From: Macrostomum lignano | Taxonomy: Eukaryota | Assembly (NCBI GenBank): GCA_002269645.1 | Contig: NIVC01001811.1 | Coordinates: 372,001-436,000 of the forward strand | Length of the DNA stretch: 64,000 nt | Reading direction: 5' to 3' | Shown: positions 1 to 46,041 of the stretch, piece after piece | Layout: each line of letters opens with the position of its first letter | Position numbering within the stretch: position 1 is the stretch's first letter | The notes under the pieces: generated by a model | Told to the model about the DNA's origin: nothing | Database searches by the model: none | Seen by the model: only the letters and a program-made list of their open reading frames with translations | Made by a program: the position numbers and the translations under genes

Positions 1-65
1 AAAATATAGCCGCCCTTTACAAGCTTTCTTTCCAACCGTAGAGCCACTTGAATCATTCTGCTCTC

Positions 66-499
66 TCAAACCCCCAGCTCTTTCAGCAGTCTTCCTAATT
101 CTTTGCTTGGCGCGTGCAATGCAAAACCCACCCCACCCTCGACGTCCATTCCCAATCCCAACTTTGCCTTACTAAAAATAACAGCTTTAACTAGCTTCGA
201 GCGATCGATTCCTTCCACCCGCTGAAGCCCCTATATTGTCTAGTCTCCTAATGCATTTCTTTGTCCCAGCGATTCTTCTCTCAGGAAAATCTCTATATTT
301 AACGTCATGCCACATGCAGACAGAGTCTAGCTCATTCACAGGCTCATGCCCAGGATTTGGATAATTGTTTTTATCTAACTGTATTTCAAGTGGATTCAAA
401 GGCCGCAATATTTATAGCCGGGAAGTGTCCAGCCTTTGTTTGGACGAGGAAGCTTTTCTATCAGTCCATGTGAATCTATTTTACCACAGAGCGCTGCAT
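66..499 (-). pseudogene. Parvovirus-type phospholipase A2 domain protein (frameshifted)
   Basis: Joining frames on the minus strand gives MQRS..GKIDSHGLIEKLPRPNKGWTLPGYKYCG(P)LNPLEIQLDKNNYPNPGHEPVNELDSVCMWHDVKYRD...VKAVIFSKAKLGLG. This contains the YxGP Ca-loop and the HD catalytic motif. At least three frame changes. Confidence 0.85.
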
Positions 500-528
500 T
501 ATTTTATTTAAATTTTCTTTTTAAATAA

Positions 529-1555
529 ATGACAGATCAGAAACTTAAAAAACTCTACTACAGCGACAAAGGATTTTGTAGGCAAAATGCTGTTAGTAAA
601 CTCATGGAGCTGAGTAAAGCAGCCAATACCAGTAGAAAAATGGCTCTCTAAGCAGGCTGTCTTTCAAGTCTATTTCCCACCAGTAAAATTTGAAAGGCGC
701 CATTTCAGTATTTATAAAACCTAATGAAGCGCACCAAGCAGATCTTTGTTTCTCCCCAACGACTCAGGCTACAAGTATGCTCTACAATTATTGACATTGC
801 TTCCAGATATAAGGAAGCTCGCCCACTCAAGACGAAGAAGTCAGAGGTTGTTGCCAGCGCACTGCAAGATATTTTATAAAAACTCTCGCGCTCACATACC
901 CCCAAATCTTATGACCGACCCGGGTAAGGAATTCATGGGTGTAGTGAAATCCCTTATGGAAAAAAAAAACACAGAGATTCGCTATGGCAGAACAAACTTG
1001 CACAGAGACCAGGCTTTTGTGGAAAGATTCAATCTAACTCTAGCCAAGAGGCTATTCACTAAGCAGACAGCTGAAGAGCTGAAACTAAAAAGTGGTCAGT
1101 ACTATACCAAGTGGACAGACCGGTCCCCACTGTTATAGAGCAACTGAACAATGAAGTCACACGCATGACTGGATTGAAACCATCCCATGCAATTAAACAA
1201 GACACTGTCGAACTTAAGGCATCTCATAGAACAGACAACAACACGACAACCACACAACACACACAACACAAAACACACCTCGAACTACTAAAGCTTCCAG
1301 AGTTGAATCACCATACATACTGACAAACTCTGAGTTTCTACGCTTTTTATATCTACCTGGAGAGCTAGAGAAGACACCAAAAGAAGAGCTACAGATCCAT
1401 ACTTCAGCCTTGATGTACATAAAATAGACAGACATTTTACCTCCGACTCCGGTGACTATTACTTTTTATCTCAGGCCTTTAACCCTAAATCCCCCACGCG
1501 GTCATTCACTAGAGCTGAACTCCTAGTGATACCAGCTGACACAGAAATTAATTAA
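529..1555 (+). pseudogene. Retroviral-type (rve) integrase of the Polinton, frameshifted
   Basis: Fragments HQAD(L)FLPND..YKYAL..IDIASRYKEA, MTDPGKEFMG, QAFVERFN (D-D-E), and C-terminal YLPGELE..KRRATDPYFS..RSFTRAELLVIPADTE. Multiple single-base indels. Confidence 0.9.
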
Positions 1556-1571
1556 AATATTAAAATAAAAA

Positions 1572-2016
1572 ATGACAAAGATTGAAACCAGAACCATCAA
1601 TAAACTCAATAAAATCATTGAATCAAAGAAACCAGGTATTATATCAATTAAAGGTGTCAAAGTAAAAATCGATCCCACGCAGCAAATACTTCAGTGTAAT
1701 GAGCAAAGACACAGCATCACAGATGAAAAGTCAGGAGGAATCCTACCATTAGCAGCTCTTATTCCGAATCATTGCAGGCGCTGTAAGTGCCGCAGGTGGT
1801 GTAGCTGGAGGTGTAGCAACTGCTGTTAAAGCTGGAATGATAGAGCCCACCAGCTGAATTGCAAAAGATTGCAAGAGACAAAGGTATAACAATTAAGGCA
1901 GGAGAGGGCTGCCCGATCGTGATGATTGTGAGAATGAAAATTCTGTAAGCAAGTCTGACATTGTCAAAGCCATCATGACACTGCACAATGCTGGGTTTAC
2001 AATAATGCGGATGTGA
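1572..2016 (+). pseudogene. Small basic protein with an adenovirus protein X-like hydrophobic segment (frameshifted)
   Basis: Frame-joined KSGGILPLAALIP-IIAGAVSAAGGVAGGVATAVKAG..ELQKIARDKGITIKAGEG resembles the GGxLPxLIPxIAAA segment of adenovirus pX. Confidence 0.6.
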
Positions 2017-2136
2017 TGAGGTTTAAAACCCCACTTTATCCAGCTTCATAAACCTAACGCTACTTATAGGATGTAGAAACAGTTCAACTTTTCTATCAGG
2101 GTGGTCACCCTCAAAATTTTTTATTTATAGAAAAAA

Positions 2137-5100
2137 ATGCCAAAAGCTAATCCAGCAAGATTTAGTCAACAAATATTTTTCAAAAGGCGTCTCATTTCAA
2201 GACAAAAGTAATTCACTAAGAGAAGCATGCAAACAAAAGTTCAACACCGACCCTGGTCACCTGGGAAGCTATGAAAAACAGTTGGAAATCATCAATCAAT
2301 TAGAATCAAACCAGTATGCGCCTATAAAAATTCTGCAAAGGAACACCAAGAGAGGAGTCGCAACTTAGTTAACAAATACGAAACTCTCACTGGTGAAAAA
2401 GCAAAGTACCCACAAAATAAGCAGGAACAAGAGAAATTAGAGCAATTAATCCATTTAAAAGAGTCGGAGCTTGCCATGAAGAGATTAATTTTGCACAGAG
2501 GAAGTTTACAGAACATTACATAGAGTACACAATCCCAATAAACGGCACCACGGTACCACCGCAAACATCTACGACTATAAAGACAGCATCCAATCAGTTG
2601 TTGATCACACACTCAAAACACGCAAGACTTTAAACTACAGATATCATTCAAGATTGCGTTTTATATGCCTGCGAAACCCACTGAGCATCTCGAGTATTAC
2701 ATGACAACAAAGGCAAAGCCATTCACCCCACAGACACACTGGATCCTTTCCTTCAAGATGTCACTAAGAAAATTGAAGCGTTTCATCCAGAGGTTCCGGA
2801 TGGGTCGTGGGAGGGATTCAAAGAGCGACTGTCATGGTCATGAAATATGACCCACTTAAAGCCTCCTCTTATATAGAGCTCCCGCATAAGCTAGCCGGTA
2901 AAAAAGCTTGCATAAATGTTAAAAATAAAGACAATTGCTGTGCTCTATGGGCAGTTCTTTCTGCACTTCTTCATGATAGTGTCCCTCACCACCCGAAAGA
3001 ACCTCAAATTATCAAAATTATTTCAACTACTATCTCATCGAATGCGAAAAGAAGGGAATCAGGTTTGACAAAGGAGGCTTGGCGATCTCTCAGATCCCAA
3101 AGCTAGAAGAAGTGTTTAATAACAAAATTAGAATCACAGTCTTTGAGTGGAGTGAAAAAACTGAGAAAGTTCAACCGGTCAGATGTAGCAAAGACGTTTT
3201 AGATCCCGAGGGAAAAGGCGGACTGAAGTGGATCTTCTAGTGATTGGTAATTTACTAGAGGAGGCTCACTATGTTTGGATTAAAGATCTTTCAAGACTCA
3301 TTCACAAACAGTTGAATAATCATCACGAGGCTGTTGCCATCTGCCGCTTGTGCCTTAAGCATTACAGTGGACCTGAACGCTTTGAAAACTAGCAGAGCAT
3401 GAATTATCATGCGAGGATCACCCAACAAACTGCTCTCTTCCTTCAGCTGAAGAGAAGTAATCTCCGGTTTAAGAATTATCATAAGATGGAGAAGCTCCCA
3501 TTTGTTGTATATGCTGATTCGAATGCTCAATCGTGCCGGAAACACAAAACAAACTCAACTCAAAAACAAACTCCAACTCAAAAACAAACTCAAACTCAAA
3601 AACATATCCCCAATTCAGTAGCATATGCCTTTATTAATACAAAAGGACTTGTTGAGTATAATTATTTCTTTGGAGAGCAGTGTGTGGAGCAGTTATTGCC
3701 AGAATGTTAGAGTTGCAAAGTAATTAGCACCCTTCAACCTGTTCCAATAAGTATGTCTGAGGAGGATGAATTAATTTCCTATCAGCAACTCATTGCCACA
3801 TCTGCAGGAAACATTTAACTTGCACTAATATTAAAAACCCCACCGTTAGGGACCACTGCCACTTTACTGGGAAATTTAGAGGTGCAGCGCATAACACCTG
3901 TAATCTAAAGCTAAAATCGAACATTCATGATCTAACGATATTTTGTCACAACGCAAAGAACTATGACATGCATTTAATAGTTGAAAAAATCGGCATGATT
4001 CCAGACATACACCTTGATTGCATCGCAGAGAACAAGGAGAAGTTTAAGTGTGTTGATATTAAACAGGATAATTCGGGTACAGGTAAAATAAGACTGAAGG
4101 ATTCATATCAATTTCTAGCTGCCAGTCTAGACGAACTAAGCAAGAATCTAAAAGATGAACAATGTACATATACAAAGATGTTTGCAAGTAAAATTAACAA
4201 CATGATGAATCATTTAAACTTTAAGAAAGAAAGGCTTCTACCCCTATGAAAATATTACTGGGTATCACGTATTTGAAGAAGGTTTACCACCACAGGAGAA
4301 GTTCTTTTCAAAGCTAACAGACTCTGGAATCTCTGACAAAGACTATGAGCACGCGAAGCATGTCTATAATTACTTTAATTGTCAAAACTTCTTCCAGTAT
4401 CACCTGCTTTACCTCTTCACAGAGTGTTTCTGCTGGCCGATGTGTTTGAAACCTTCAGATACACCTGGTACACAGCATATGGCCTCGATCCAGCACATTA
4501 TGTGTCTCTGCCTGCCACTAGCTGGGAATCTTTGCTTAAAATGAAATGGGATCAAGATCCAGATTGGTACATTGAACTTCTTACAGACATTGACATGTAC
4601 AATTTTGTCGAATCGTCAAAGCGAGGGGGAATCTCAATTTGCACCCATAGATATGCAAAAGCAAACAATCCCTACATTGAATCTTACAATAAGGAGCAGC
4701 CCTCAAACTACATTACTTACTTGGACGCTAATAATCTCTACGGTTGGGCGATGAGTCAAGATCTTCCAGTTAGAGATTTTCGATGGCTACCCTCATCAGA
4801 ATTCAAATGGGACTTTTCATTGGCTGCCATCTATGAGGTTGATGTTTACATTCCACCAGAGCTTCACGACTATTTCTCTGACTTTCCACCCTTCCAGAGA
4901 ACATCAAGTGCCCGAAAATAATCGAAACTCCCAATGATAATAATGGAACTTGGCACCTGTCAGGAACAGAAAAAGAACATACAGAGAAACTAACACAGAA
5001 TCTAAACAACAAGACACGTTACAAAATCATTACAAACTGCTTCAGTATTTTATCTCACTTGGTTGCAGGGTCACCAAAGTTCACAGGGCTCTTACATTTA

Positions 5101-6002
5101 CAGAGGAAGCGTGGATGAAACCCTACATTGATAAGAACACCCAGTTTAGGACCAAAGCAACCAACGACTTTGACAAGAACCTCTTTAAGTTGGCCAACAA
5201 CTCTGTCTATGGCAAGACTCTTGAGAATGAGCGGAAAAGAACAAACCTGAAACTTGTTACCTCATCAGAGCCTGTTGTTATTCAGGCAAATATGTCAAAG
5301 CCAACATTCAAAGAACTTCATATCTTTAATAGCTACTTAGGTGTGATCATATTTTACAAAACCAAGGTGACGCTGCGCAAGCCGATCTATACAGGTGTCA
5401 CTGTTCTCGACGAATCAAAACGTCTGATGTACCAGTTCTTCTATGGCATGAAGCAGCAGTACAAGGATAAAATGAAACTCTTGTACACTGACACAGACAG
5501 TTTTATTATGGACATTCAAACAGAAGACATTTATCAGGACATGCTGCAGCAAAAAGATTTGTTTGACTTGTCTGAGTATGATAAATCTTTCAGGACGCTG
5601 AATGGTGATCAAGTGTTTGACGCCACTAACAAGAAAGTGATTGGGAAAATGAAGGACGAGATTGCTGGTGATATAATCACTGAATTCATTGGGTTGAGAG
5701 CAAAGTCCTATTTTGTAAAATGTGAGTCGTCAGACCCAATTAAAAAATCAAAGGGAATTCCGAAACGTGTGGTTAGGAAGGAAATTAATGAAGCTGAATA
5801 CAGAGACGCCTTGAATTGCAACAAAAAGACATCACATGAGTTCTCAAAGCTACAATCTAAAAACCATATTATTCACACAATTCAGCAAAAGAAGATTGGA
5901 CTGTCAGGTGCAGATAACAAGAGATTCATTTTTGATGACAATATCAACAGTCTACCGTTCGGGCATTGGAGATTAGGTTTAGGAGGTGGATATTGGGTTT
6001 AG
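2137..6002 (+). pseudogene. Protein-primed family B DNA polymerase (pPolB); 5' two-thirds frameshifted, 4950-6002 open
   Basis: Motifs GSGW, YDPLKASSYIELP, RDHCHFTGKFRGAAHNTCNL, RGGIS, YLDANNLYGWAM, KLANNSVYGKT, YTDTDS, IGKMKDE, FIGLRAKSY. At least eight frame changes before ~4950. The start at 2137 is inferred. Confidence 0.93.
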
Positions 6003-6035
6003 GTTTAAGAGAAAGTTTAATAAACCTCATAAAAA

Positions 6036-6437
6036 ATGACAACAAATAACTTTCTTGAAGATTTGGCTAACGAACTGGAAATCCCAAACTTTAGAGGAAT
6101 ATTTATGAGGGACACTCTGCCTGATTTTCCTCTAAGAAAAGAATGCGGCATCATGAACTTTGACACCACCGATAAGCCAGGATCTCATTGGGTTTGCTGG
6201 GTGATTGATCCCGATCGCAAGCACAAGTGTTATTACTTCGATAGCTATGGGACGGCAGTACCAGAAGAGCTAAGAAATTATATGAAGGGAAAAAATAATA
6301 AAAAAATTTATCGCTCAGACTTTATTCTCCAAGGTCTTAGCAGTGATATTTGCGGTGAGCTGTGCATGACTGTTTTGTATGCAATGACCAAAACACGAAA
6401 GACCTACAAGGAAATTATTCTTGGCTGTGTTTCATAG
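6036..6437 (+). CDS. Adenain-like cysteine protease (virion maturation protease)
   Basis: Open 133-aa ORF with catalytic motifs GSHWV, YFDSYG and Q..SDICGELC. Confidence 0.92.
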   Translation: MTTNNFLEDLANELEIPNFRGIFMRDTLPDFPLRKECGIMNFDTTDKPGSHWVCWVIDPDRKHKCYYFDSYGTAVPEELRNYMKGKNNKKIYRSDFILQGLSSDICGELCMTVLYAMTKTRKTYKEIILGCVS

Positions 6438-6441
6438 GGGT

Positions 6442-7083
6442 TCATTGTGCATTCCTCGTTGTACTTCTCGTTGTCCTTCTTTCCACATAATGTTGAAGAA
6501 CTTTCTCGAGTTCATTTCTCAGCTGACTCATGTCATCAATACCGACCATGTTCAAGTTCATTCGAATTGATTGTTCATAAAGATCCTGAATGGTTTTGAA
6601 CTCATCCTCTGAAATGAACTTATCATCGATTGCCCTTGAAATGTACCCTATGATTGAAGTGTGCACCCCTTTCTCTTTTACTTGCTTCTCCTGTAGCTGC
6701 TTTAGTTTTTTTCGCCTGTTTCGCGCTAATGCTCCAGTAATTGCTGAAATAAGTCCACATGCAGCACCCACAGAGCCGAGCGGGATTGCAATTGGGGCTG
6801 TGATGACTGGCAACACTGAGACAGCCGCAGCAGATCCAGATAGAACAGACACAGATCCTAGAATCATATTGCTGTAGTCGAAAAATTTACAGTGGTTTTC
6901 ATAGCGCTTAATTTTCTTTCTGTTGTGGAAAATATTTTTTTCAAGATCATCGCGCATTTTTTGAATCTCCACCAGTCGAAACTGTTGAGAGTTACAAGTA
7001 ATGACGGGGTAGAGTTTTTGTTGCTCATATTGGGGTGCATTCAGATTCGGTGCCAGGTTTTGTGTGTTCGAATTCGGTGCCAT
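6442..7083 (-). CDS. Conserved Polinton protein with a central hydrophobic hairpin (putative membrane-active protein)
   Basis: 213-aa ORF: LYPVI..FRLVEIQKMR, hydrophobic ILGSVSVL...ISAITGAL, then RAIDDKFISEDEF. The frame stays open upstream to an ATA at 7155. Confidence 0.75.
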   Translation of the reverse strand: MAPNSNTQNLAPNLNAPQYEQQKLYPVITCNSQQFRLVEIQKMRDDLEKNIFHNRKKIKRYENHCKFFDYSNMILGSVSVLSGSAAAVSVLPVITAPIAIPLGSVGAACGLISAITGALARNRRKKLKQLQEKQVKEKGVHTSIIGYISRAIDDKFISEDEFKTIQDLYEQSIRMNLNMVGIDDMSQLRNELEKVLQHYVERRTTRSTTRNAQ

Positions 7084-7245
7084 TGAGTTTGGTGCTGTCG
7101 GTATTTTAGGTTCAACGTATTGAGACTGATCGTATAGAGAATTTTGTTGGGCTATTTTTTCTCTAGAAAAAATAAAAAAATTATAAAACTATCCGGTTGA
7201 AAGATCTGTTTTCTTTTTGATAATTCCATCTGCACCGCCGGTTGT

Positions 7246-8064
7246 CTAGGCGGCTCTCGTGACGCCGGAGGATCGCGAGTCCAGCAGGCAGCGGCTGGGC
7301 GGCTGACGTTTGAGAGCGTGCCGGATTACTCCGGCGGGGTCCAGAGCTCCTTCTACTCGATCTGTAGACATGACCGGACGAGCAGCAGATTCTGCTTCAT
7401 CAATAGCAATGTCACGAAGATTGAGTGTTCTCTCCAGACGATCAAGCCTCCTTATTATTTTACCCCAAGAGCTATACATTCCGTTTAGATAGCTACTGTG
7501 TGATACATCCTTTCTCTTTAATGCTTCAAGTCTTTCTTTAATTCTATCATGCAACGATGTTGACTGGTTCATGAACTCTTCTAAATTATTGACTTTAACT
7601 GTGTTGGTTGCGACGTTTTCTTTAATTCTATCATGCAATGCTGTTGACTGGTTCATGAACTCTTCTAAATTATTCACTTTAGCTGTGTTTGTGAAAACTC
7701 CTCCTTCAAGAATACGCATCCGTCTATCAGTGGAATTTCCCAGAAGATTAACTGATGATCTCAAGCCGTTGATTAGCGAGACTATCGAAGTTATTTCTGA
7801 CCTTAGTTCATTAGTTGCGTTTAACAACGGCACATAAAGCTTATCACTTTCAAACTTCTGCCTAGCTACTTTAAGCCTGAGATCTTCCATGTTTATTTGC
7901 AACTGGTGCATGGAGCGCTCTAGGGCTTTCAGTCTGTTTTTATTCAGTTTGATCTCTGGGATCTTTTCGTCGCTGTTGATATATCGCCTGTCAAGGATGG
8001 ATATCTGAGCTGATGTAAGAGCGCTGTTGCCAGAAATGGATTCACCTGCAAAGTTTATCGACAT
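7246..8064 (-). CDS. Coiled-coil protein with an internal 28-aa duplication (fibre/spike candidate)
   Basis: Open 272-aa ORF with heptad character; TNTxKVNNLEEFMNQSTxLHDRIKE occurs twice. Confidence 0.7.
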   Translation of the reverse strand: MSINFAGESISGNSALTSAQISILDRRYINSDEKIPEIKLNKNRLKALERSMHQLQINMEDLRLKVARQKFESDKLYVPLLNATNELRSEITSIVSLINGLRSSVNLLGNSTDRRMRILEGGVFTNTAKVNNLEEFMNQSTALHDRIKENVATNTVKVNNLEEFMNQSTSLHDRIKERLEALKRKDVSHSSYLNGMYSSWGKIIRRLDRLERTLNLRDIAIDEAESAARPVMSTDRVEGALDPAGVIRHALKRQPPSRCLLDSRSSGVTRAA

Positions 8065-8080
8065 CTTTTAATAGCAAATT

Positions 8081-8881
8081 TTAAATTACAGTTCTTTTTT
8101 CTTTGCTGATAATCACAAACTGGTAAGGCTGATTCCACTTGTCATAGCAAAGATTAACGAATTCCTCTTGTGAAATCTTTCTGCTTGAGTTTTTTGTTGG
8201 ATTTATGAAATAGGCAGGCGCAATGACCTCATTGTAAAATCTTTTTAACCTGTCCTGTGGAATGGTTGGAAACAGGAGAATCAGATTGCAGTTCCCACGA
8301 ATTGTTTTGTTCGGGAGCTCGAACCAATTCTGTGCAATGTAAATTACATTACAATTGTTATGTCGCCCTCTTGTAAAATAGTTTTCTATCTGCTTCTGTG
8401 GGCCTGTCATACAATCATCAAAGACGATCAAATGCTTTCTCCCCTTTTCTAGCTCATCTGGTTGGGGTAGAAGTTTGGTCTTTGGATCAGCCTGTGGATC
8501 TCCATAGGTGAACACTTTAATGTTCTGCCATTTTTCATTGTCTTTGAGGTGCTTTGCATATTCAGCAGCTACAATTTCTGGGTTACTGGGAAGGATTTGT
8601 TGGTTATTAAAACATTGAATAATGTCCTCTTTGTTCAGTTTGTTTTGCAATCCAGAAATCAGCATTTTATACTCATCTTGATACAGTGTGGGAGAGTAGA
8701 TGTGCAGAGTGTCATAGTCGATAAAGCCAGGTCTAAGAAGCATGTTAAAGACTCTGAATGTTTTACCTGAACCTGATGAACCAACAACAATGCATCTGAA
8801 GTGACTCGGGATTGACTCATGATGAGAAAACTTAATCTGATTACGCGTCCAGTGAGGATTGAAGTCGTTTGAAAAGTCCAT
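8081..8881 (-). CDS. A32/FtsK-like DNA packaging ATPase
   Basis: Walker A GSSGSGKT, Walker B LIVFDD, FTRGRHNN arginine motif and YIAQNWF; open 266-aa ORF. Confidence 0.95.
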   Translation of the reverse strand: MDFSNDFNPHWTRNQIKFSHHESIPSHFRCIVVGSSGSGKTFRVFNMLLRPGFIDYDTLHIYSPTLYQDEYKMLISGLQNKLNKEDIIQCFNNQQILPSNPEIVAAEYAKHLKDNEKWQNIKVFTYGDPQADPKTKLLPQPDELEKGRKHLIVFDDCMTGPQKQIENYFTRGRHNNCNVIYIAQNWFELPNKTIRGNCNLILLFPTIPQDRLKRFYNEVIAPAYFINPTKNSSRKISQEEFVNLCYDKWNQPYQFVIISKEKRTVI

Positions 8882-8923
8882 TTTTTTTTCTATGATGAAA
8901 AAAATAATTAAATAATAAATAAT

Positions 8924-9090
8924 TTAGATGTGTCATTTCGGGACTTAGATGTGTCATTTTGGGACTTAGATGTGTCATTTTGGGACTTAGATGTGTCATT
9001 TTGGGACTTAGATGTGTCATTTGGGACTTAGATGTGTCATTTTGGTACTTAATTGTGTCATTTTGGGACTTAGATGTGTCATTTTGAGAC
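8924..9090. repeat. Eight copies of a 21-bp tandem repeat (TTAGATGTGTCATTTTGGGAC) inside the Polinton
   Basis: Read directly; intergenic between the 9117 stop codon and the ATPase start (8881). Confidence 0.95.
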
Positions 9091-9116
9091 TAGTCTTGTA
9101 CCCTCGGAAAGTACCT

Positions 9117-9496
9117 TTAGTCAAATTTGAAACCACTTCCTTTTTTAATGCTTGCTCTCATCTTCTCATAGACTGCAGGGTCCACACTGTCTGGGTTTGG
9201 GGCCAGCGGGGCCAGTGGAGGTTGAATCTCTTGTTTAGGTGTTACAGTATCCTTTATCTTTTTGGCTGCTGTGGCTACACTGCCAGCCGCTTCGGCAACG
9301 TTCTTGATGTTCTCTTTGTTCTCTCCAATGACCTTAAAAATCTTGGCCCCTGAGCGATCAAATCAGCAAGACCGTTCCCTGAGCGTTCTTTTCTTGGATA
9401 GTGGCCTGCAGGGAAAAGTCCAGATCCGCGTTTAATAAGATTAAGTTCCTCTTTGTCATAGTATTTGTCCACGTCTTTCTCAAAAATAATCGGCAT
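9117..9496 (-). pseudogene. Basic core-like protein with repeated G-S/N-G-hydrophobic motifs (one frameshift)
   Basis: ORF 9275..9496 continues after a frameshift as VAEAAGSVATAAKKIK..IKKGSGFKFD*. Motifs are IKRGSGLF, RSGNGLAD and IKKGSGFK. Confidence 0.6.
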
Positions 9497-9512
9497 CTTT
9501 TTAAATAGAAAT

Positions 9513-10749
9513 TTATTTTTTGTTAAACCGTGAAAGCAAAAGTTCTCTTGCTCTTTTATCGATATACTTCTTTTCCATCATTTTGTCCAGGATGTTGACA
9601 AATTCTTTTCTATTTTCATCTTTCATTCCGGTCTTTGCCGCTCCTAGAAGAACCGCTACTCGCTTGTAGATTTCAGAAATTCCTTTTCCTGTTGAGGGCG
9701 GTTGGTCTTGGGGTTGTGGAGTTGGTTGGGCTTGTAGCTGCTGGGGAGGTGATGCAAAAGACTGCTCACTTTCAGAGATGGAACTGTCATGCGGTGCCTG
9801 TCTTTGTTGAGGTGTGAAAACTCTTTGCTTGATTCTTTCATTCGATCTGGAGAGTGTTGTTCTAAGTGTTGCCAGGCATCTGGGTGATCATTTTTATATT
9901 TAGCTACATGAGTCGGATCTGCATTTTCCAGTTGCCTGAGTACTTCTGTAAAATGTTGTTGCTGTGGTTGTGGTTGTTGCTGTGGTTGTGGTTGTTGTTG
10001 TTGCTGTTGTTGTTGTTCTAGATATTTTATGACTTCCGCCTGATCTGGCAAATCGAACCATTGTTTAAAGTGGTTGTACTTTTTGAATTTAGTCAGGTTG
10101 ACACCGCTATCGTACATGTGTTTCAGAACTTCTGGGACCTTTAGTATTTCTATATCTCTAACAAGAGAAAAGTCACTAGATTTCTGTAGTTCTTTAGCTG
10201 CTTCTCGGAGATTTTCTCTTGGTTCTTGGTCATAAAAGTCAGTAAGGTGTCTGTGAAAGGAATTTTCATAGTTTCTGAGCCTTTGACAACAGAAATATTT
10301 TCCTTATTTATGTCGATATAATATTCCACTGGTTCATTATAAATGTTTCTTCTCCACATACTTATTCCAAATACATATTTCCCATCATGTTCGACACGCT
10401 CTACTGGTCCAAAAATGTTATCTGTCACTTTTAGTTGCTGTTGTGGTTGTGATTGTTGTTGTGATTGTTGTGGTTGCGGTTGTGTCTGTGGTTGCGGCTG
10501 TATCTGTGGTGCTTCTGGAATTTTGCCCAAAGCCTTTTGCACCTGGGTTTCCTGTATGTCGTCGATAGTTTCTTTGACCTGATCAATATTTTTCTTAGCT
10601 TCTCCATACCCGGGCTTATGAAACTCTGTGGCTGCTTGGACAAACTCATTGTAGGATTGCTGCTCCTTATTTATTAGCCCGGTAACTCGTTTCTCTGCTT
10701 GTGCTAGCTTCTCCAATTCAGATATCTGCTGTGTACTTTTTCGCTTCAT
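9513..10749 (-). pseudogene. Gln/Pro-rich Polinton protein split by at least two frameshifts
   Basis: ORFs 10150..10749 and 9656..10117 join, then continue as STGKGISEIYKRVAVLLGAAKTG..KEFVNILDKMM..*. This C-terminus resembles a motif I recall from Maverick proteins. Confidence 0.6.
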
Positions 10750-10779
10750 TTCTTATTTTATTTTATTTTTAGTTAAAAA

Positions 10780-12066
10780 ATGAACGACCCACTGACACCA
10801 GTTTTCTACAAAATTAACAAGCCTATTTTGAGTGATGATAGCACAATCAAAGCGACTCAGGTAAGAGTTCCCAGTCAGGAAAATCAGAATGAAACTAATC
10901 TTGGTCCTGGCCAAACACTGACATTTACATACAATGGATGTTCGTCTCTGGTTAGTGTGCACAGTCTTAAGAGCGGCTTCCATATGACATTTCAATTCAA
11001 GACAAAAGGTGGTGCGGATGCGGCTCGTGCTAACGTTGACAAGCATGATGCGGATGTGGCTCTGATCAGTAACTTTTGGGCGTACATGTTCAAGGAGTTT
11101 AGTGTATCGAATGGGAGCACAGAGTTGGAGCGAATCGCCAACTTTGGAATTGTCTATGACGCTCATTGTTTGATCGAGAATCCTGATTTTATTCAGTTGG
11201 GAAGTGGTGCGGGTTTTATTGCAGATGAAAAAGAAGGAGACATCAATGACAGTGGCTATAAAAAGAGGAAGAAGAGATACAACTATGCATTGCAAGGTGC
11301 AGATGATGCTGCTAAGAACCCGCAGTATCGGTCTGTTGATGTATTTGTACCATTGAGATTCATGAGTGGATTCTGTAATACATTTAATCGACTGACTAGT
11401 AACTTTAGCTACACCTTTAGGATGACTAGAGATGATCGCAGTAGAGTGTTGTGGACTGGGGCGGACCACACAAGGATGGAGGTGAAGCTAACCGGAATCG
11501 AGCTGTATTTGGAAGTCATTGAGCCAAAGACTGCACTAAAAGCGGATTATCTCAAGGCAATAGAGAAGGACATTGATGTTGCATACACAGCCTACATGTG
11601 TCGAGATGAGCGAAACGAAACTAGAACAAACATCTGCATTAAAGAGGGATCATGCAGCAATCCAAGGTATATCATTATTAATATGAGAAACCCAAATAGC
11701 ATTATACGCTACATGCATGGAGACGTGCGGTCCATTCAGCATGAAATCAGTGATAATCTTTACCCTGCACTGCCACAAAATGGAGATTTCAGTCAGAACA
11801 AGATTAGCAAATTTTACAGCGAGTTAGTCGACTTGGCTGTGAAAGAGAACAATGGAATTGCTATCACTGCTCTTCAATATGGAACTCTATATCCGATGTT
11901 TGGCGCTGATGTGTCTGCCAGACAAATGCCTACTGATAACAGCCCTGTGAATATCGTGACTAACATTGAAAGGACTGTCGCAACACCCGTGGACCTGTAC
12001 ATTATCTATGCATTTGAGAGGAAGGTGAAGCTTAACATGATCAACAATTCATCCAGTAAAGTTTAA
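10780..12066 (+). CDS. Major capsid protein (double jelly-roll, hexon-like)
   Basis: Open 428-aa beta-rich ORF directly upstream of the penton-like gene, with an N-terminal D-x-[ST]-I motif and C-terminal LYPMFGADVS. Size and position are typical of Polinton MCP. Confidence 0.85.
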   Translation: MNDPLTPVFYKINKPILSDDSTIKATQVRVPSQENQNETNLGPGQTLTFTYNGCSSLVSVHSLKSGFHMTFQFKTKGGADAARANVDKHDADVALISNFWAYMFKEFSVSNGSTELERIANFGIVYDAHCLIENPDFIQLGSGAGFIADEKEGDINDSGYKKRKKRYNYALQGADDAAKNPQYRSVDVFVPLRFMSGFCNTFNRLTSNFSYTFRMTRDDRSRVLWTGADHTRMEVKLTGIELYLEVIEPKTALKADYLKAIEKDIDVAYTAYMCRDERNETRTNICIKEGSCSNPRYIIINMRNPNSIIRYMHGDVRSIQHEISDNLYPALPQNGDFSQNKISKFYSELVDLAVKENNGIAITALQYGTLYPMFGADVSARQMPTDNSPVNIVTNIERTVATPVDLYIIYAFERKVKLNMINNSSSKV

Positions 12067-12091
12067 ATATTTTTTTTTGTGGGTGAAAAAA

Positions 12092-12955
12092 ATGGAAGCT
12101 ATAGCCGAAAGACTAAATAACATTGTTTCACACTCTAAGGAGAGCATTCCTATTACAATAACTGGTCGAATTAATGACTCAAACGGGATGTTTGTTGAAA
12201 AATTAGAGCAGGCGATTCGCCTGGATCCAGGTGCTAATTACCATGTCTATCTTAACGACTTCACCGGTTGGTCAAACGTTCCTAATGTGATGGCAGCAAA
12301 TAATAAGTTTTATTACAAATGGAAAGGTGCAGCAGCAGACCCTGTGGTATTCCATGTGAGCACGCAAAGTGTGGATACCTACAATAACTTTCTAGAAAAT
12401 GTCTTTACTAAGAGAGGCCATTTTGAGACACCTGATGCGAGTAAGCCAGAGAAGAAACTGTTCCCTGTCAAACTAACCTATGATCTCACTGTAATGAGAG
12501 TGGTCATGCAAGTTCACAAAAATGCGGAGGTTGAGTTTAAAGATGACACTTGGTATAGGGAACTAGGATTCGAGAAGAAAGTTTATAAGGCAGAATCCGC
12601 GGCGCAGACCGCCACTCAAGCATCGGGGACTGTTAGAATGGTCCGGGAAAGTGTAAGCGGTTTGTTCTTAGCACCCAATATTGCAGACATTGTAAAGGGT
12701 TTGAATATTCTAATCAGAAGCAATCTCAGTCTTGATTGGGTATTTAAGGGAAAGCGAACGAATATTTTGTACAACATCTCCAACTCTGTTGCTGGAGGAC
12801 AGATGGTGGTAGAGAAACCAAATCCAGTGAAAAGAGTTGTATTGAGTAATAAGGAGATTCACGAGATTGTGCTACAGTTTGAGACTGAAGATGGGATGGG
12901 CGTTGATTTTAATGGGGAAGAGTTTGTATTGACGTTGATCATTGAGAGAATGTAA
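12092..12955 (+). CDS. Minor capsid protein (penton-like)
   Basis: ATG after an A-run at 12092 (the ORF track starts at a non-ATG). Motifs W.NVPNV...NNKFYY, ELGF and VDFNGEE..LTL.I. Confidence 0.85.
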   Translation: MEAIAERLNNIVSHSKESIPITITGRINDSNGMFVEKLEQAIRLDPGANYHVYLNDFTGWSNVPNVMAANNKFYYKWKGAAADPVVFHVSTQSVDTYNNFLENVFTKRGHFETPDASKPEKKLFPVKLTYDLTVMRVVMQVHKNAEVEFKDDTWYRELGFEKKVYKAESAAQTATQASGTVRMVRESVSGLFLAPNIADIVKGLNILIRSNLSLDWVFKGKRTNILYNISNSVAGGQMVVEKPNPVKRVVLSNKEIHEIVLQFETEDGMGVDFNGEEFVLTLIIERM

Positions 12956-12959
12956 GAAA

Positions 12960-13199
12960 TCACAATTGCCTAATGATTTCTGCAAAGTTATAGTAGCTAT
13001 CGTAATCTTTTACATAGGTTACTCCATACTTATGAAACTAATGTCTTTGGAGAGCTAGATTAATATTAGGGACATTGATATCAACGTTGGGCCAATATTT
13101 TCTCATGTACTCGCTGCATTCCTTCTTGCATCGGTACTTACTCTTGTAATTAGGCTCGTGCGCTTTGTAATAAGAACCCGGAGAGACAACTGGAAACAT
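12960..13199 (-). pseudogene. Small Tyr/Lys-rich ORF (79 codons) with one internal stop
   Basis: Manual translation MFPVVSPGSYYKAHEPNYKSKYRCKKEC...LQRH*FHKYGVTYVKDYDSYYNFAEIIRQL*. It has an A-run before the ATG and its stop lies 4 bp from the penton stop. Confidence 0.55.
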
Positions 13200-13339
13200 T
13201 TTTAGAGAAAATTTAATTTTTTTTTCAAAGGGTAAGGACCCTGGGTTAGGGGATTCAAAGTCTTTGGGATGCGTAGCGAATTGCGAATTGAATGTGTGGA
13301 GAAGAATACAGATTGTTTTCTGATTGTTTCGAAGATGCT

Positions 13340-13670
13340 ATGGGTGGATGTCAGTGGATTATGTAGGACACCTGCTATGCTCTGATTCTGTCGTGGAGGA
13401 AGGAGGATAGGTTAGGAGGATTATGTTCGAAGTTTTGTAAGCGAGTGCGACACCTGTTATGCTCTGATTCAGGGATAATATGGATGGATTTAATGGGATT
13501 ATGTTCGAAGTTTTCGGAGCAACTAGGACACCTGTTATGCTCTGATTCTGTCAGGGATAATATGGATGGATTTAATGGGATTATGGAGGATGTTTTGTGA
13601 GCGAGTGCGACCCCCCTTTTTTTCTGATTCTGTCGGGGATAATATGGATGGATTTAGGTGGATTATGGAG
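13340..13670. repeat. Imperfect ~80-bp subterminal repeats (probable Polinton TIR region)
   Basis: Three to four copies of GACACCTGYTATGCTCTGATTC and three of GGGATAATATGGATGGATTTA. Confidence 0.7.
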
Positions 13671-14303
13671 GAGGTGAAAAATTTTGTCCCAGAAGCCCCC
13701 TCATGCCTTCTACTTAAGCTATTTCCACCAAATTTAATCTGCATGTACGGCATGCAGGCGCATTGAGATGTATGACAGCTTGAGTAAAAATGTTTCTTTG
13801 GAGAGCCGCTGTGCTCATCTAAAACATTGGCCTCATGTGGTAAAATAGTTTTGACTTTTATTTCTTCGCTACCACTCCAGATGCTACTTATATAACTCCT
13901 TTTTGCTTGTTCTCAGGCCTCTCGTCTTCGCCTTGGCTTGATAAAAACGCATCCTCAGACTTTATTTTCCATAGAACGATTTATTATCGCGTGTGATACT
14001 ATACTTCATCGGCTGAATTCCAACGGTGTTTGACAACCCTCAAACAACGCTTAACCAACGCTTTATTGATTTATTTTCGATACAATACTCTTACAAGTAA
14101 AAAAGAAGCCCGAAACAAAACGGGCTGGGATAATATTTTTGCATGGTACTACTAACCCCAACTAAACATATAGGCTTAATTCAATTTTATTAGTTGTAAA
14201 ATATGTTTCTTGATGATTCAACAATTCAAGCAATCACTTTAATCTCGTTTTGTGATGGCACTGATGACAGATGAATGAACGAATGTGTCCTTGGCTTGGG
14301 TGC

Positions 14304-14533
14304 TGTTGTGTATTTGCTTTGCTAACTAATTATGGTCATTCATAGACGGACTTTTGATTTAGATATTAGTCTATGGTTCATAGGGATTAAGTTCGACTGT
14401 ACACATTTATTTGCTTCAAGTCTCGATACTTTTCGTTTAAATATAAACAAGCTACAAGCACGCTACCGCTAAGACACTTCAACTTCTAACTTCCCAAAAG
14501 TTTTACCGCCTTCGCGGTATTCAAAACGTAACA
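14304..14533 (+). repeat. 5' LTR
   Basis: TGTTGTG...CGTAACA; three mismatches against the 3' LTR. Confidence 0.96.
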
Positions 14534-14544
14534 TGGCGACGAGG
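14534..14544 (+). promoter_or_regulatory. Primer-binding site TGGCGACGAGG, complementary to the tRNA-Ser(GCU) 3' end
   Basis: Immediately follows the 5' LTR; matches the recalled ...CCUCGUCGCCA 3' end of metazoan tRNA-Ser(GCU). Confidence 0.8.
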
Positions 14545-14606
14545 TAAACACGCTGGAGGTCTTGAGCAAGTGGTATAAAACTGACTACTTCAGACCAGCA
14601 ATTTCA

Positions 14607-17600
14607 ATGGCTCAGTCGTCGCTAGATTTCCGACTCGGAGAACTACCGCTTTCTTATCCTGAGATCGAGCAGTACTTCAAGAGACTGCAGTTTTACCTGG
14701 TGGCTTCACTTCAGGCAAGCGGGAACAATCCAAAGCTGTACTTTTGGCAACGTGCGGAGACGCAGCTTTCACTCTAATAGAGGAGCTTTTAAAGCCAAAA
14801 GACATCGCTAAGGATGAGGTGACTTACGAAAATATTCAGACATCGCTAACGGCACACTTCAAGCCCAAAACGTTACTTCACTACGAGAGGCATGTGCTTC
14901 ATTCAATGGTGCAGAAGGAGGGCGAGTTGATTTCTACCTTCGTTGAAATTCTGAAGCGTCAGGCCAATAAATGCCAGTTCGGCGATCTCCAAGAAGAACT
15001 CATTCCGTCGCAGTTCATATTCGGCCTACGCAATCAAGCACTGAAGCAGAAGCTCCTTTCGAAAGAGGATCTCGCTTTGGCCGCTGCAATTCAAGATGGC
15101 TTGCTGGCCGAATCAATTAATGTGGCTACGAATCCGTCGAACGCAATCGCTGCGGTGCAGAACAAAGTCCATACCGGACTTTTTAAGCAAGAGAAGAAGG
15201 CCCCGGCTTACAATAAACAGCATTACAATTCGGACAATCGCAAGAGACATTCGAAGCCTCATGAAACTGGACAATGCCACACCTGCAGAAAGGTAGGACA
15301 CGTCAGATCAAAGTGCCGCTTTAGGGACGCGCAATGTCGAAAGTGTGGAAAAGTTGGACATCTTGCAGCAGTTTGTCGTTCGAAGACTGTGAATGCAGTG
15401 CAAAACGTAGTAAGATCAGAAGATGCTAGCCATGAGCATGTGGGAGCAGTCTACACAGCAGCTGGCATCGGAGACCCAACGGATCAGTGGTTTGCTACCT
15501 GCAAGATCGGAGATGCGAGCGTTAAGATGCTAGTGGATACTGGGAGTCAAGTTACCATTATACCCAAGAATGTTGCCGATATTTCCAATCTACCATCCAA
15601 ACCGATTTCGAAAATGCTCAGGTCCTACGGTGGCTTTCAGCCCACCATATATTCAGTCATTCCGGATGCAACCATTACTCTGTCTGACAGAAGATACGCT
15701 ATTGGACATGTCTATGTTGGAAACGATTCGATGGCCATTCTCGGCATGGATTTCCTATCGCGCCTAAACCTATTGCACTTCGATAGTAGCATTTCTAAAG
15801 ACGTCCTTTGCCTACCAGTTGTGCGCGATGCAAACGACCGATTTCTTGCGAGTTTCCGCCTTCGCTCGGATGCTAAAATGGAAGGTATGCGGTACCCTGC
15901 CAGATCTCTGCCTTTTTCAATGAAGTCTATGGTAGAGACCGAGCTCAAGAGACTACTGGGTGCGGGAATAATTTACCCAGTTGAAAATCCAACAGTGTCA
16001 GCGCCAATAGTTCCGGTTTTAAAGCAGCAAGGCTCAGCTAGACCAATAAGGCTATGCGGTGACTACTCACTCACTCTGAATCGCATAATTGATGCTGATC
16101 GATACAAGTTTCCGAAGTTAGAAGAAATTCTTTCTAAAATTCCCAATGCGAAGTTCTACTCTGTCCTGGATTTAGAGGAAGCATTTCTACAAGTTGCACT
16201 GTCTCCGGAGAGTCAAGAACTTACCTGCATATCGACTCATATGGGTTATTTTGCATTCAGGAACCTCCAATTCGGAATCTCTGCAGCGCCTCTTATTTTC
16301 CAAGAGGTCATGGACGACGTACTAAGAGACATAGAATGTACAGCGTCATATCAAGATGACATATTAATCGGAACATCCTGTGACCAACAGCAACACATGC
16401 AGGTGCTGAACATGGTAAAGCAACGCTTAGCCGACCATGGGTTCAAGATTAACACGCGCAAGTCTCAGGAGTGTCAACAAAAGGTCAAGTTTCTTGGTTT
16501 CATTCTCCACAACGGAAGGCTCGAACCAGATCCTGCCAGATTAAAGTCGTGGGACAACATGCCAGAACCCGCTGACAAAGACCAATTGAGAAGCGTCTTG
16601 TGCACTCTTCGCCACTATGGCTTATTCTGCAGAAATTTCTCCATCATTGCTCGACCGCTGTACTCGTTGCTGAAGAAGGGACAGCACTGGTACTGGAACA
16701 ACGAACTATCAAAGGCCATCGGGAGACTAAAGCAAAGCATCCGCCAAGGAGCAATCACTGCGTACGATCTGTCAAAACCATTATTCTTGACCTGTGATGC
16801 ATCTAAAAAGGGACTAGGATTCGTGCTCTCTCATGACAGAGAACAGATGCAGATTGTCTGGCTCGGAAGCAGAGTGCTCACGCCCGCAGAGTGCAATTAC
16901 GCTAACATTGAAAGAGAAGCATTGGCAATCGTGGAAGGAGTGAAGTATTTCCATCAGTTTTTAGCTGGAAGAAGATTCACTATTTTATCAGATCACAGAC
17001 CGCTACAGTTCATCTTCAATCACAGCAAATCGTCTGAACGTGTTTCAGCCAGATTGCAACGCTGGTCTCTCATTCTGCGAGCATATGAATACAGCATTGA
17101 ATACGCCAAAGGTAGTACAATGTTTGCTGCCGATACGCTTTCGCGACTTCCGAGTGGTGAATTACTGCCCAATGAATCTGTGAACTTATTGTCGATCAAT
17201 GCGTTGGACAGTTTTGCGAACTCTGATGATTTATTGCATCGCATTGCTACGTCTAACGACCACAACCTTCGGACACTAAAGCAGGTGCGCCCAGTGTCAG
17301 CTTCACGCGAGGAAGAGAACAAATGCGAATTTATCGTCCTGGGAGGATGCGCAGACGTTCTTTGAAAGAGTCCACGCAGACATAGCTATGTTCAAAGGAC
17401 ACAAGTTCCTAGTGCTAGTAGACGCGTTCTCCAAGTGGGTGGATGTTCGACACGTTGATTCACTTAAGTCACAATCAGTGGCTCGGGCGTTTCGACATAC
17501 TTTCAAGTACATGGGTATACCGAAGACGCTGGTGACTGATAATGGTACAAACTTCACTTCAGCTGAATTCGCTACGTTCCTCAAAGAGAACTTTGTGCAG

Positions 17601-18149
17601 CACGTTCTGACTCCACCGGGTCATCATCAGTCGAATGGGCAAGTGGAGCGAGCAATCGAAGAGTTCAAGTTTTACTTGAAAAAGAACAACGCTAGTTCTG
17701 ATACAGCTGAACTAGAGCGACTCATTGTCAGGTTCTGTCTGTTTCAGAATACTACACCGCAATGCAACGGTTCTATTCCTGCTGGTTTGGTGCTTCATCA
17801 ACTTCCTAGAACTCGCCTGTCAAGTGTGTGCACTGACTGGACCAAGCCAAGACAGCAGCCTGACCCAGTTTACATTCGTGTGGAACACAAGGAAGAGAAG
17901 GTTCCGTCCACAGTTACTACTTCTGTCGGGACAAATACATTTCGTGACAACAAAGGTCGTCTGGTTCATCAATCGGACATTACTCCTAGACTACCAACTG
18001 AGACTGACGAATTCAATGCCGACGAAAGTTCAGATCCTATTCCTGAGGACAAGGCTAGCGAGGAGACAGCTGGCAAAGCAACGGCCCCTGCTGAAAACGT
18101 ACGCAGGAGTTCGCGTCAACGACGACCTCCAGATCGTTTCGGTTATTGA
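14607..18149 (+). pseudogene. gag-pol polyprotein, with a frameshift in gag (~14700) and a deletion plus frameshift in the integrase (~17285)
   Basis: CHTCRKVGHVRSKC and CRKCGKVGHLAAVC; LVDTGS; YQDDILI; CDASKKGLG..EREALAI..SDHRPL; VHADI..TDNG..SNGQVER. Confidence 0.93.
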
Positions 18150-18171
18150 CGAATATCAGCATCGGTGGGGG

Positions 18172-18401
18172 TGTTGTGTATTTGCTTTGCTAACTAATTA
18201 TAGTCATTCATAGACGGACTTTTGATTTAGATATTAGTCTATGGTTCATAGGGATTAAGTTCGACTGTACACATTTATTTGCTTCAAGTCTCGATACTTT
18301 TCGTTTAAATATAAACAAGCTACAAGCGCGCTACCGCTAAGACACTTCAACTTCTAACTTCCCAAAAGTTTTACCGCCTTCGCGTTATTCAAAACGTAAC
18401 A
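18172..18401 (+). repeat. 3' LTR
   Basis: 227/230 identical to the 5' LTR. Confidence 0.96.
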
Positions 18402-19159
18402 TAGATTATGTAACAATGCGCCTTAATTTATTTCATATATATTTGTATCTGAACAAATCTATGTAATCAAAGTAATTAAGATACATTCTAAATAATGATT
18501 GACTAAATCTACTATTGAATTAAAACTGGATCGACTGGAACTCTGGAACGGCTATGCAACCCTACAACTACTACAACTACTACGGCGCCTACTACGGAGA
18601 CCTAACACCTGTGACAGTGTGATTCGTAGAAGCGCGTGTATCGTATTTCTTTATTTTCATATGCATACCGTGCTACTACTGTATTCTTCCATTTATTTTA
18701 ACAATATTCGTACGTATTATTATCGCGCTATTTTTACTGTTAATTGCTTTGTTTTTGTAGCCTCGTATGTATTTATTCTATTATTTGTATTTCATTCATA
18801 TCGTTATTATTTATCGTAAAGTAGTTCTACCTATGTACATGTACTGACGTATGTTATTCTTGCATGATATATTTATCGATTGATTTGTACATGTACATTG
18901 CGCGCCGCGTGGGGGGTTTGTCTGGGTTTTGGATTAGGGTCGCTGTTGTTTGTTATCTGTTTACCTTACCAATTAAATATACGCTTGCAGCCAGCCGCCG
19001 CTCTCCCCCTGCTCTCCTGAGTTTTCGCTCCGCTTCTCGCGGGCCCCTTAGCCGTCGCATTCAATTGCTTTAGTCGCACTAAAATTAAGCAGCTACCAAT
19101 CAAAACCTAACCTTCAATTCAACATACCAAATCTGAATCTGCAATTTACGCTCAGTCAG

Positions 19160-19564
19160 TACCGCGAAGGCCACTGGGTTCTGGGTATGGTGCAGCGAGG
19201 AACGAACCGCTGCATGATGGTCGTTGTCCCGGACCGCCGTGCGGAGACCCTCATGCCCATTATTGCCCAGTACATACTGCCTGGCACCAGCATAATCACT
19301 GACGGCTGGTTGGCCTACCAGCAGCTGCCCAATCATGCTGTCGTCAATCATCGACTGAACTTCGTGAACCCGGTGGACCCAACTGTCCACACTAACACCA
19401 TCGAGGGCACATGGGCTCACGTGAAGGCCAAATTCCGCCAGATGCACGGTACATCCGATGGACTGTTTGAGTCACACTTACAGGAGTACCTCTGGCGGCG
19501 CCTCTTCCCGAACAAGACCTTCGGGAACTTCCTCTACTGGGTGTCACATTATTATCCATTGTAA
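19160..19564 (+). mobile_element. Merlin/IS1595-family transposase, 5'-truncated
   Basis: HWVLGMVQR, ILPGTSIITDGW, VNHRLNFVNP and HTNTIEGTW. The first catalytic Asp segment and the TIRs were not found. Confidence 0.85.
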
Positions 19565-30300: not shown

Positions 30301-31085
30301 CAAGGACCCACATGGACCCCACCTGTAGCCAAGGTGCAATAGTTGGTCACTCGGTCATGGTATGACCGAGTGGCTGCCACCACTCTATGTGACCTGGCGC
30401 ACCTGGATCTTTCTACCAGACCTCTCGAGGCTAGAGCCCCGCCTGGATTGGTTACCAGGGGATTTAGGCTAACAGGGGAGACGCATGCAGCCGAGTACAG
30501 GGACTCTGCTTGGGGCATGATCGGGAACTCTGGGCTCAATCCTGGAGGATTTCTCAGCAGGGGATCCTTTGTGGCTGTGAGCGAGGCTGACTTGCGACTT
30601 TGATTACTAAGAGTAGTATGAGGCGAACATGTACTGTCTATAGTTTAGATTGCTCAGGGCGAAGGGACGCGTTAGCATGGGGTTGCAACCTTCCTACTGC
30701 CATTCTGTGCCAAGACTCGCTAATCCATCGACTGCACGCACACACGGCCCCGCAGCACGCACTCACAGGCGGGCGTTGCGCGGGGAGAGGCCATTAGCTT
30801 ACCCAGACTTCCTTATGCTTTGCCACCCCGGGAGAAAGGCTTAGCAAGCCATGAGTGAAATGAGGGGGAAAGAGTGAATAATGAAGGAGTTAGTTAATAG
30901 TTAATAATTAGGCCCTTAGGCGAATAATCAGGCAATTAGGCGGCTTCACTATTGAGTAAAATACAGCAAAAAGTTACGGTATCACAATTGGCTCAGCTCT
31001 CTAATCAGACAATGGGAAATAGGCAAACCCCGGATAAGCAAAGGCAATTAGAGCACAAATTAGTAACAGGAACTTACCGGCAGCT

Positions 31086-31140
<55 letters not shown>

Positions 31141-45516: not shown

Positions 45517-46041
45517 ATATAAGAAAGCTTATACTTAGATTATTGCATATTAGCTAGACTTAAATTTTCATCTAGGTTTGTTTATATGTTAGTTGGTTAA
45601 ACAGTCGACAGTTACTGACAACAATGACCCCCATAAATGCTCCCCTTCCAGTACCAACTGGACTCAGCATCCAGCTGTGCAACCTGTCAATCTCGACAAT
45701 TACACAATCGCATGCCGTTTATCTCCGCAACAGCAGCCATCACGACGCGCCGACACAGCCGACGTAAAGGACTCCATGCAATTCAAGCCGCCTGGTTCTG
45801 TAGGAAGAAAGCGTTAAAATTCGCGGATTATGCGCTTAGCTGAAAACGGCGACCGGATCAACGTTGTACACACTGTCGAATACGCTACTAGCCAGCGCAA
45901 CTGCTAATTCAACTATTTACTTTCAGTTTTATTATAATTATATAATTATTAAAGACAGCTTAAGCCTCTTTAACACAACTACTAATAACTAAACAAATTT
46001 AAAACTTGAACAGTTGGGAACTAAAATAACAATTTAAAACA

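Follow-up and report, generated by a model that had tools for sequence, protein, structure and literature searches.

A Polinton in the flatworm Macrostomum lignano that probably belongs to a young, numerous family, and the likely assembly errors that make this copy look broken

Introduction

The first 13,714 nucleotides (nt) of a stretch of flatworm DNA (the window: 64,000 nt of Macrostomum lignano contig NIVC01001811.1, assembly GCA_002269645.1, positions 372,001 to 436,000 of the forward strand) hold a copy of a Polinton/Maverick element whose two halves seem to tell different stories. As assembled, the genes for the capsid, packaging and protease functions are open, whereas those for the protein-primed B-family DNA polymerase (pPolB) and the integrase are in pieces. 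Is this a dying element, a capsid module kept by its host, or a functional virus-like family seen through a faulty assembly? An earlier note, made from the sequence alone, had read the locus as an adintovirus-like Polinton with a near-complete toolkit for virion building, entry and maturation, from a recently infectious lineage that might be undescribed for the taxon. Here it is concluded that the element is an adintovirus-like Polinton/Maverick copy integrated in the M. lignano genome, and that it probably represents a young family of about a hundred copies, with most of the breaks in this copy being artefacts.

Capsid genes and identity of the element

Identification rests on two adjacent open genes, for the major capsid protein (MCP) and the penton, the second of which starts 25 nt past the first. 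The MCP model, built from an 83-row alignment, has a pLDDT of 92.8 and a pTM of 0.90. Its structural matches include the Sputnik capsid protein (E value 1.6e-18), and virus proteins of the double jelly-roll type occupy the first 16 of the 50 rows listed. Structural alignment gave the highest score with PBCV-1 (Z 24.4, root-mean-square deviation [rmsd] 4.8, 362 residues aligned), then Sputnik (Z 21.5) and mavirus (Z 20.1), with a weaker match to adenovirus hexon (Z 11.2). The penton model is less confident (pLDDT 75.6, pTM 0.54); its best match is the mavirus penton (E value 8.1e-10; Z 12.7, rmsd 7.3, 239 residues aligned), followed by adenovirus penton bases. The earlier note would have given up its reading had the two proteins not folded as jelly-rolls. 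Both models match jelly-roll capsid proteins; the element carries true jelly-roll capsid genes, and its identity as an adintovirus-like Polinton is borne out.

Sequence comparisons place the MCP within a small, coherent group. Nine homologues with 43-78% identity were found among 4,355 candidates, and in a FastTree phylogeny they form, with the window protein, a group of 10 rows (SH-like support 100; 43-78% identity), the remaining relatives being at most 27% identical. A profile search returned 497 proteins at an E value of 0.001 or lower. All four MCP relatives tested pass the cut-off of the double jelly-roll family PF21738, against whose threshold of 27 the protein of the window reaches 23.4; a sequence search of the PDB with the MCP profile gave no match. 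For the penton, 13 homologues with 38-64% identity were found among 491 candidates. Unlike its relatives, in which this part is shorter or missing, the penton carries some 22 extra residues (around 166-187, where model confidence is low).

Depth, divergence and age of the family

At least 20 sequencing runs of one organism, from seven studies, contain 57-72% of the words sampled, and contigs of four runs (X1, X4, X6 and X8) were aligned to positions 1-14500 of the window. Depth is high across all 29 bins with element sequence. The ratio of the median element bin to the flank bin is 286 in X1 and 272 in X4, two runs from different studies and years, and depth per contig at one site is 57-108 times that of flank contigs. 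Three points temper these ratios: a Gypsy long terminal repeat (LTR) reaches into the flank bin, X1 may be the very sample behind the assembly, and summed contig depth does not measure copy number, so that the depth is read as no more than "on the order of a hundred" copies.

Substitutions between the window and the run contigs amount to about 1%; of the 16 listed ones that fall in open frames, 11 leave the protein unchanged (p 0.0003 for an expected share of 25%, p 0.004 for 33%). This low, mostly silent divergence, together with the high depth, indicates that the family is likely young as well as numerous. The divergence itself probably reflects recent spread, in keeping with the recent lineage that had been proposed. 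Joint rows 1614-12473 (10,858 nt skipped; two runs) and 11105-12234 (1,128 nt skipped; three runs) point to internally deleted members.

How such a family spreads is a separate matter. It may be, although this is held tentatively, that intact members spread only in the germ line as self-synthesizing transposons, the capsid genes being a recent inheritance and no particles now being made. The near-equal depth ratios in two studies fit stable genomic copies of this kind; the full length of the MCP and penton genes, whose products are 56-78% identical to their closest relatives, suggests instead that selection acts on genes for particles. In two of the runs, which may be RNA, coverage is even over each of the 30 bins, with the spacers no exception, and stands at 10 and 74 times that of the flank, a pattern for which carry-over of DNA is an equally possible source. 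All four runs were compared as contigs, from which ends, strand and level are not readable.

The contigs also bear on the limits of the element, which the earlier note had set at positions 1 and 13,714. A contig of X1 (record 6) and another of X4 (record 14) both begin to align precisely at 13715, their preceding sequence being different, and each likely comes from a site that lacks the insertion. Because these apparently empty sites begin at 13715, the right end is fixed at 13714; the left end and the left terminal repeat lie outside the window. The empty sites suggest that the insertion postdates the split of alleles or subgenomes, and about 85% of the M. lignano genome is reported to be present in three copies (PMC10733133).

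The right terminal region is likely the right terminal inverted repeat, for which no partner was found within the window. Polintons/Mavericks characteristically have terminal inverted repeats at both ends and a 6-bp target-site duplication. Depth climbs several-fold between 13069 and 13714, above all in the two possible RNA runs; the two terminal repeats, together with short non-autonomous elements, could contribute to this rise.

Origin of the breaks

The contig comparison, which covers 32 of 24,966 pieces (26 of them used), 40 of 326 substitution rows and 12 of 104 gap rows, separates the left 5.1 kb of the element from the rest. In the 16 listed pieces from X6 and X8, the 3,528 nt compared on the left contain 31 substitutions and 35 gaps, as against 47 substitutions and a single gap in the 3,646 nt compared for the rest of the element (Fisher p 6e-10). 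Over all 26 pieces the corresponding counts of substitutions and gaps are 47 and 41 on the left and 119 and 6 elsewhere. The excess is confined to gaps, the substitution rate being no higher on the left (0.9%) than in the rest (1.3%). All 12 listed gap rows are single-base differences in the left 5.1 kb, each seen in three or four of the four runs, and no contig with the form of the window was found at 11 of the 12 in X8 or at 8 of the 12 in X6. Neutral decay is expected to yield many more substitutions than indels. A surplus of indels with no surplus of substitutions is therefore better explained by a long-read consensus with errors than by decay, and to judge from the sequence comparison the left-side breaks are likely for the most part assembly errors. 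What looks here like an "intact capsid, dead polymerase" element is likewise probably a product of the assembly and should not be taken for domestication.

Several observations pull in the other direction. The run contigs come mostly from other copies and rare variants are dropped from them, so that they do not prove this copy unbroken. Ten of the 12 gap rows lie at runs of a single base (chance 0.45 per row), where sequencing error and real slippage are to be expected alike. The 5.1-kb boundary was set after inspection of the data. Furthermore, the right-side pieces lie within open genes, and the broken genes at 9.1-10.7 kb, where depth dips, are uncovered.

Were the breaks real, indels would have destroyed the replication and integration genes of this copy, leaving it dead, or non-autonomous and movable by its sisters only. 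As assembled, 7 of its 13 genes are broken, private indels are compatible with the contig data, and internally deleted forms do occur in the runs. Nevertheless, this account is rather unlikely: it must accommodate a left part with roughly one gap in every 100 nt but no extra substitutions, a contrast of 35 gaps to none with the long pieces in open genes, and substitutions whose mostly silent nature is hard to square with a long period of neutral decay.

Alternatively, virus genomes that replicate as free linear DNA in the laboratory cultures might supply much of the depth, given that depth is some two orders above the flank and that excess DNA has been reported for a cavefish adintovirus (PMC8502044). 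This source is improbable. The contigs are very fragmented (13,990 and 9,271 pieces; 326 substitution rows), as for many diverged integrated copies, and the depth ratio is similar in two studies. Least credible is domestication of the capsid module by the host, with polymerase and integrase left to decay; the open genes do cluster in the virion module and the broken ones in the left 5 kb, but this reading was dropped because depth is high and even across the whole element without singling out the capsid genes, contigs apparently lacking the insertion imply that the copy is not fixed at all paralogous or allelic sites, and gap-only differences account for the asymmetry between left and right.

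Gene inventory

Thirteen genes were counted in the element (Table 1). Six are open (adenain, the membrane protein, the likely coiled-coil protein, the packaging ATPase, MCP and penton) and seven are broken as assembled (PLA2, integrase, the pX-like gene, pPolB, the two minus-strand genes between the tandem repeat and MCP, and the hydrophobic frame after the penton). The near-complete toolkit claimed at first thus needs qualifying: the capsid, packaging and protease genes, the four that had been called open (adenain, ATPase, MCP and penton), are intact frames, whereas pPolB, integrase, PLA2 and the pX-like gene are present only as frameshifted stretches.

Table 1. Features of the Polinton/Maverick element, in window coordinates
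Feature	Positions	Strand	State and basis
Polinton/Maverick element	1..13714	.	clipped by window start; right end at 13714, last letters CT
Parvovirus-type phospholipase A2 gene (PLA2X-like)	1..499	-	frameshifted; likely runs off left edge
Retroviral-type (rve-like) integrase	529..1555	+	several frames; motifs by eye
Small pX-like gene	1572..1857	+	frameshifted; piece 1753-1854 matches Adeno_PX PF05829, E value 0.0032, below cut-off
pPolB with endonuclease VII-like insert	2137..6002	+	about 13 overlapping pieces; by eye
Adenain-like cysteine protease, 133 aa	6036..6437	+	open; PF00770 21.9 bits, cut-off 21.3
Membrane protein, 213 aa from first Met	6442..7083	-	frame open from 7188
Likely coiled-coil protein, 272 aa	7246..8064	-	open; 28-residue repeat, 84-nt repeat D8
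A32/FtsK-type packaging ATPase, 266 aa	8081..8881	-	open; PF04665 27.4 bits, cut-off 22.8
Intergenic tandem repeat	8922..9090	.	8 copies of about 21 nt (families D2, D3)
Small basic gene, GxG sites and amphipathic stretch	9117..9496	-	two frames; no family match
Glutamine/proline-rich gene	9513..10749	-	likely a single gene over three overlapping frames; no credible family match
Double jelly-roll MCP, 428 aa	10780..12066	+	open; predicted fold, structure matches
Penton (single jelly-roll minor capsid protein), 287 aa	12092..12955	+	open; predicted fold, structure matches
Short hydrophobic frame, possible small membrane protein gene	12954..13205	+	in-frame stop
Right terminal region, likely right terminal inverted repeat	13209..13714	.	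sub-repeats of about 80 nt (families D4, D6, D7)

The broken genes on the left were recognized from matches of modest score. The pPolB piece at 3770-4246 matches PF03175 (E value 1.2e-4, below the cut-off) and PF02945 (E value 7.7e-4), and two separate pPolB pieces match the DNA polymerase family phrog_1907. Polymerase motifs that we take to be A, B and C are visible in the pieces; the end of pPolB gave no meaningful match in the PDB. Adintoviruses carry an OTU domain at the N-terminus of pPolB (PMC8502044). Motifs bearing Cys and His in pieces 2777-3103 and 3189-3389 may be vOTU-like, and searches of Pfam and PHROG returned no match for such a domain. In the integrase, D, D and E-type motifs were seen by eye in separate frames, a pattern that we assume to be that of the family. 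The PLA2 piece at 190-411 matches PF08398 (E value 3.5e-4; 21.2 bits against a cut-off of 23.9) and nothing meaningful in the PDB. In adintoviruses such a gene ends in a pX-like domain (PLA2X; PMC8502044); here the C-terminal portion extends to the edge of the window. On the identities of these genes it must be counted as a weakness that the pPolB, PLA2 and pX-like matches all fall under the Pfam cut-offs and that the integrase pieces have no Pfam, PHROG or PDB match. The PLA2 and pX-like genes that had been proposed for membrane penetration are accordingly present as stretches, frameshifted and with scores under those cut-offs, and pPolB and integrase are present in pieces, neither of them open.

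Among the open genes, adenain matches the adenovirus proteinase 1avp (E value 0.003); for the ATPase the PDB gave no meaningful match. The coiled-coil protein has no family in Pfam or PHROG searches, and its best atlas score, 0.79, serves as a lead only; a function as a fibre is conceivable. The membrane protein has hydrophobic 19-residue windows beginning at residues 73-102, and its atlas look-alikes (score 0.94, about 200 amino acids; recognition 2268, mark 2300) are all named "hypothetical protein". It had been described as bearing late domains. The hydrophobic stretch and an LYPVI motif at residue 24 agree with that description, but PTAP, although in the same open frame, lies upstream of the first Met, and a single PTAP/PSAP among the 2,678 residues scanned has a shuffle chance of 0.044. 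A late-domain role for this protein is therefore put forward as a lead from its motifs.

The protease-substrate-like core proteins fared worse. Short GxG motifs are the sole basis of the label, both candidate genes (9117-9496 and 9513-10749) are split over frames, and because the adenovirus-type cleavage motif occurs in just 1 of the 11 pieces scanned the designation has no support beyond GxG. The smaller of the two may be cupiennin-like. It and the membrane protein resemble GasderminX/cupiennin-like genes in size and hydropathy only, with no family match.

Two further regularities concern gene starts. Of the ten A4[AG]ATG sites in the element, eight are gene starts, and their density is 7.3 per 10 kb, against 2.8 elsewhere in the window. 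Directly upstream of the starts at 2137, 8881 and 10780 stands a T-rich tract followed by AG, which could be a candidate trans-splice acceptor.

Comparison with known systems

With the Polintons/Mavericks (class Polintoviricetes) the element, of at least 13.7 kb, shares pPolB, an integrase-like gene, the A32 ATPase, adenain, MCP and penton, and it differs from them in no categorical way; the nuclease insert in pPolB is also as reported for other Polinton polymerases. With the adintoviruses it shares, beside this core set, an animal host (the element adjoins host DNA of M. lignano), a probable PLA2 gene, a pX-like gene and small membrane and amphipathic genes (PMC8502044). In a set of 72 Polintons, MCP occurs in over 80%, the ATPase in 83% and the protease in 74% (PMC4028283), and PLA2X, pX-like, GasderminX and cupiennin-like genes are regular accessories of adintoviruses, which are reported from all eumetazoan phyla (PMC8502044). 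By these accounts the gene set is standard for Polintons, and the suggestion of an unusual inventory is not upheld. PLA2X goes with Alpha-type virion modules and GasderminX/cupiennin with Beta-type ones (PMC8502044), whereas here a probable PLA2 gene stands beside putative counterparts of GasderminX/cupiennin.

The best structural matches of MCP and penton, among the virophages Sputnik and mavirus and in PBCV-1, share 8-13% identity with them, and adenovirus hexon matches less well. Adenoviruses lack an integrase. A placement among the polinton-like viruses was also considered and dropped, because the protease, pPolB and integrase-like genes and the animal host fit a Polinton.

Polintons of this flatworm have been catalogued before. 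Besides the assembly used here there is GCA_001188465.1, presumably an earlier M. lignano assembly. Integrase-linked pPolB1 genes number 748 in 8 of 73 flatworm assemblies (PMC10748475), and Supplementary Table 3 of that paper has 78 rows for GCA_002269645.1, which is M. lignano Mlig_3_7 (PMC10733133), and 175 for GCA_001188465.1. Because these rows require a pPolB frame of at least 900 amino acids linked to an integrase, Polintons with a long pPolB were already on record for M. lignano, and the element cannot be called undescribed for the taxon. The table gives the places of pPolB and integrase only. Three of 30 rows (of 253) share the spacing seen here, an integrase of about 1.03 kb ending 0.5-0.6 kb upstream of pPolB; such rows may represent the same family, a link for which spacing is the sole basis and which to that extent counts against the present account.

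Beyond this table, no literature text on this M. lignano family or its capsid genes was found, although Repbase, subscription papers or bioRxiv supplements may hold one. The supplement text of PMC8502044, possibly partial, contains no "Macrostomum" or flatworm term, and "Maverick" and "Polinton" are absent from the supplements of PMC5730564 and the text of PMC11410931. Related loci were found neither among viral contigs (with the MCP alignment, the pPolB end and the membrane protein as queries) nor among metagenome contigs (with the MCP and penton alignments).

Surroundings of the element

To the right of the Polinton lies a Gypsy/Ty3 LTR retrotransposon (14297-18402) whose LTRs are identical at 233 of 237 positions with one gap, and whose gag-pol and integrase are in different frames. 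Fragments at 19052-19564, 44527-45009 and 62707-63632 resemble DNA transposases, which we take to be ISXO2-like in the first case and mariner-like in the other two. Host genes lie at 24339-35800, 46030-49874, 54159-54677 and 57278-58030 among many minisatellites. The minus-strand gene at 54159-54677 is CEP20/FOPNL, 99% identical to a 153-residue protein of the free-living M. lignano (next match 53%), which places the window in this species; the others presumably include a FYVE-domain gene, eIF5-like exons and an MFS-like transporter. The same 28/31-nt minisatellite occurs at 25950-26650 and, 24 kb away in the opposite orientation, at 50150-50880, the two being 90-94% complementary.

Proposed life cycle and significance

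The steps by which intact members of the family might propagate can be drawn, by analogy, from PMC4028283, bioRxiv 2024.03.18.585575 and PMC8502044. Linear DNA would be copied by the protein-primed polymerase and inserted by the rve integrase. Any particles formed would have a shell of MCP and penton, into which the ATPase would package the DNA and which adenain would mature, and on entry the PLA2 and pX-like peptides might breach membranes. That laboratory M. lignano actually harbours an active polintovirus making particles, with non-lytic exit through the PTAP/LYPx membrane protein by the endosomal sorting complex required for transport (ESCRT) route, is considered unlikely; no literature linking a Polinton with a late domain and ESCRT was found. 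Were it true, a transgenic, piRNA-tractable worm would be a ready host in which the assembly of an animal Polinton, its spread and its return to the germ line could be followed.

Finding an actively reproducing Polinton has been called an important challenge (PMC4028283); unpublished evidence from insect cells has been mentioned, and a tetra fish proposed (PMC8502044). What is likely added here is evidence for a young, numerous family, along with a warning that the broken left half of this copy is probably artefactual. Such a family in a cultured, transgenic flatworm would offer one further place, not the sole one, in which to seek infectious animal Polintons.

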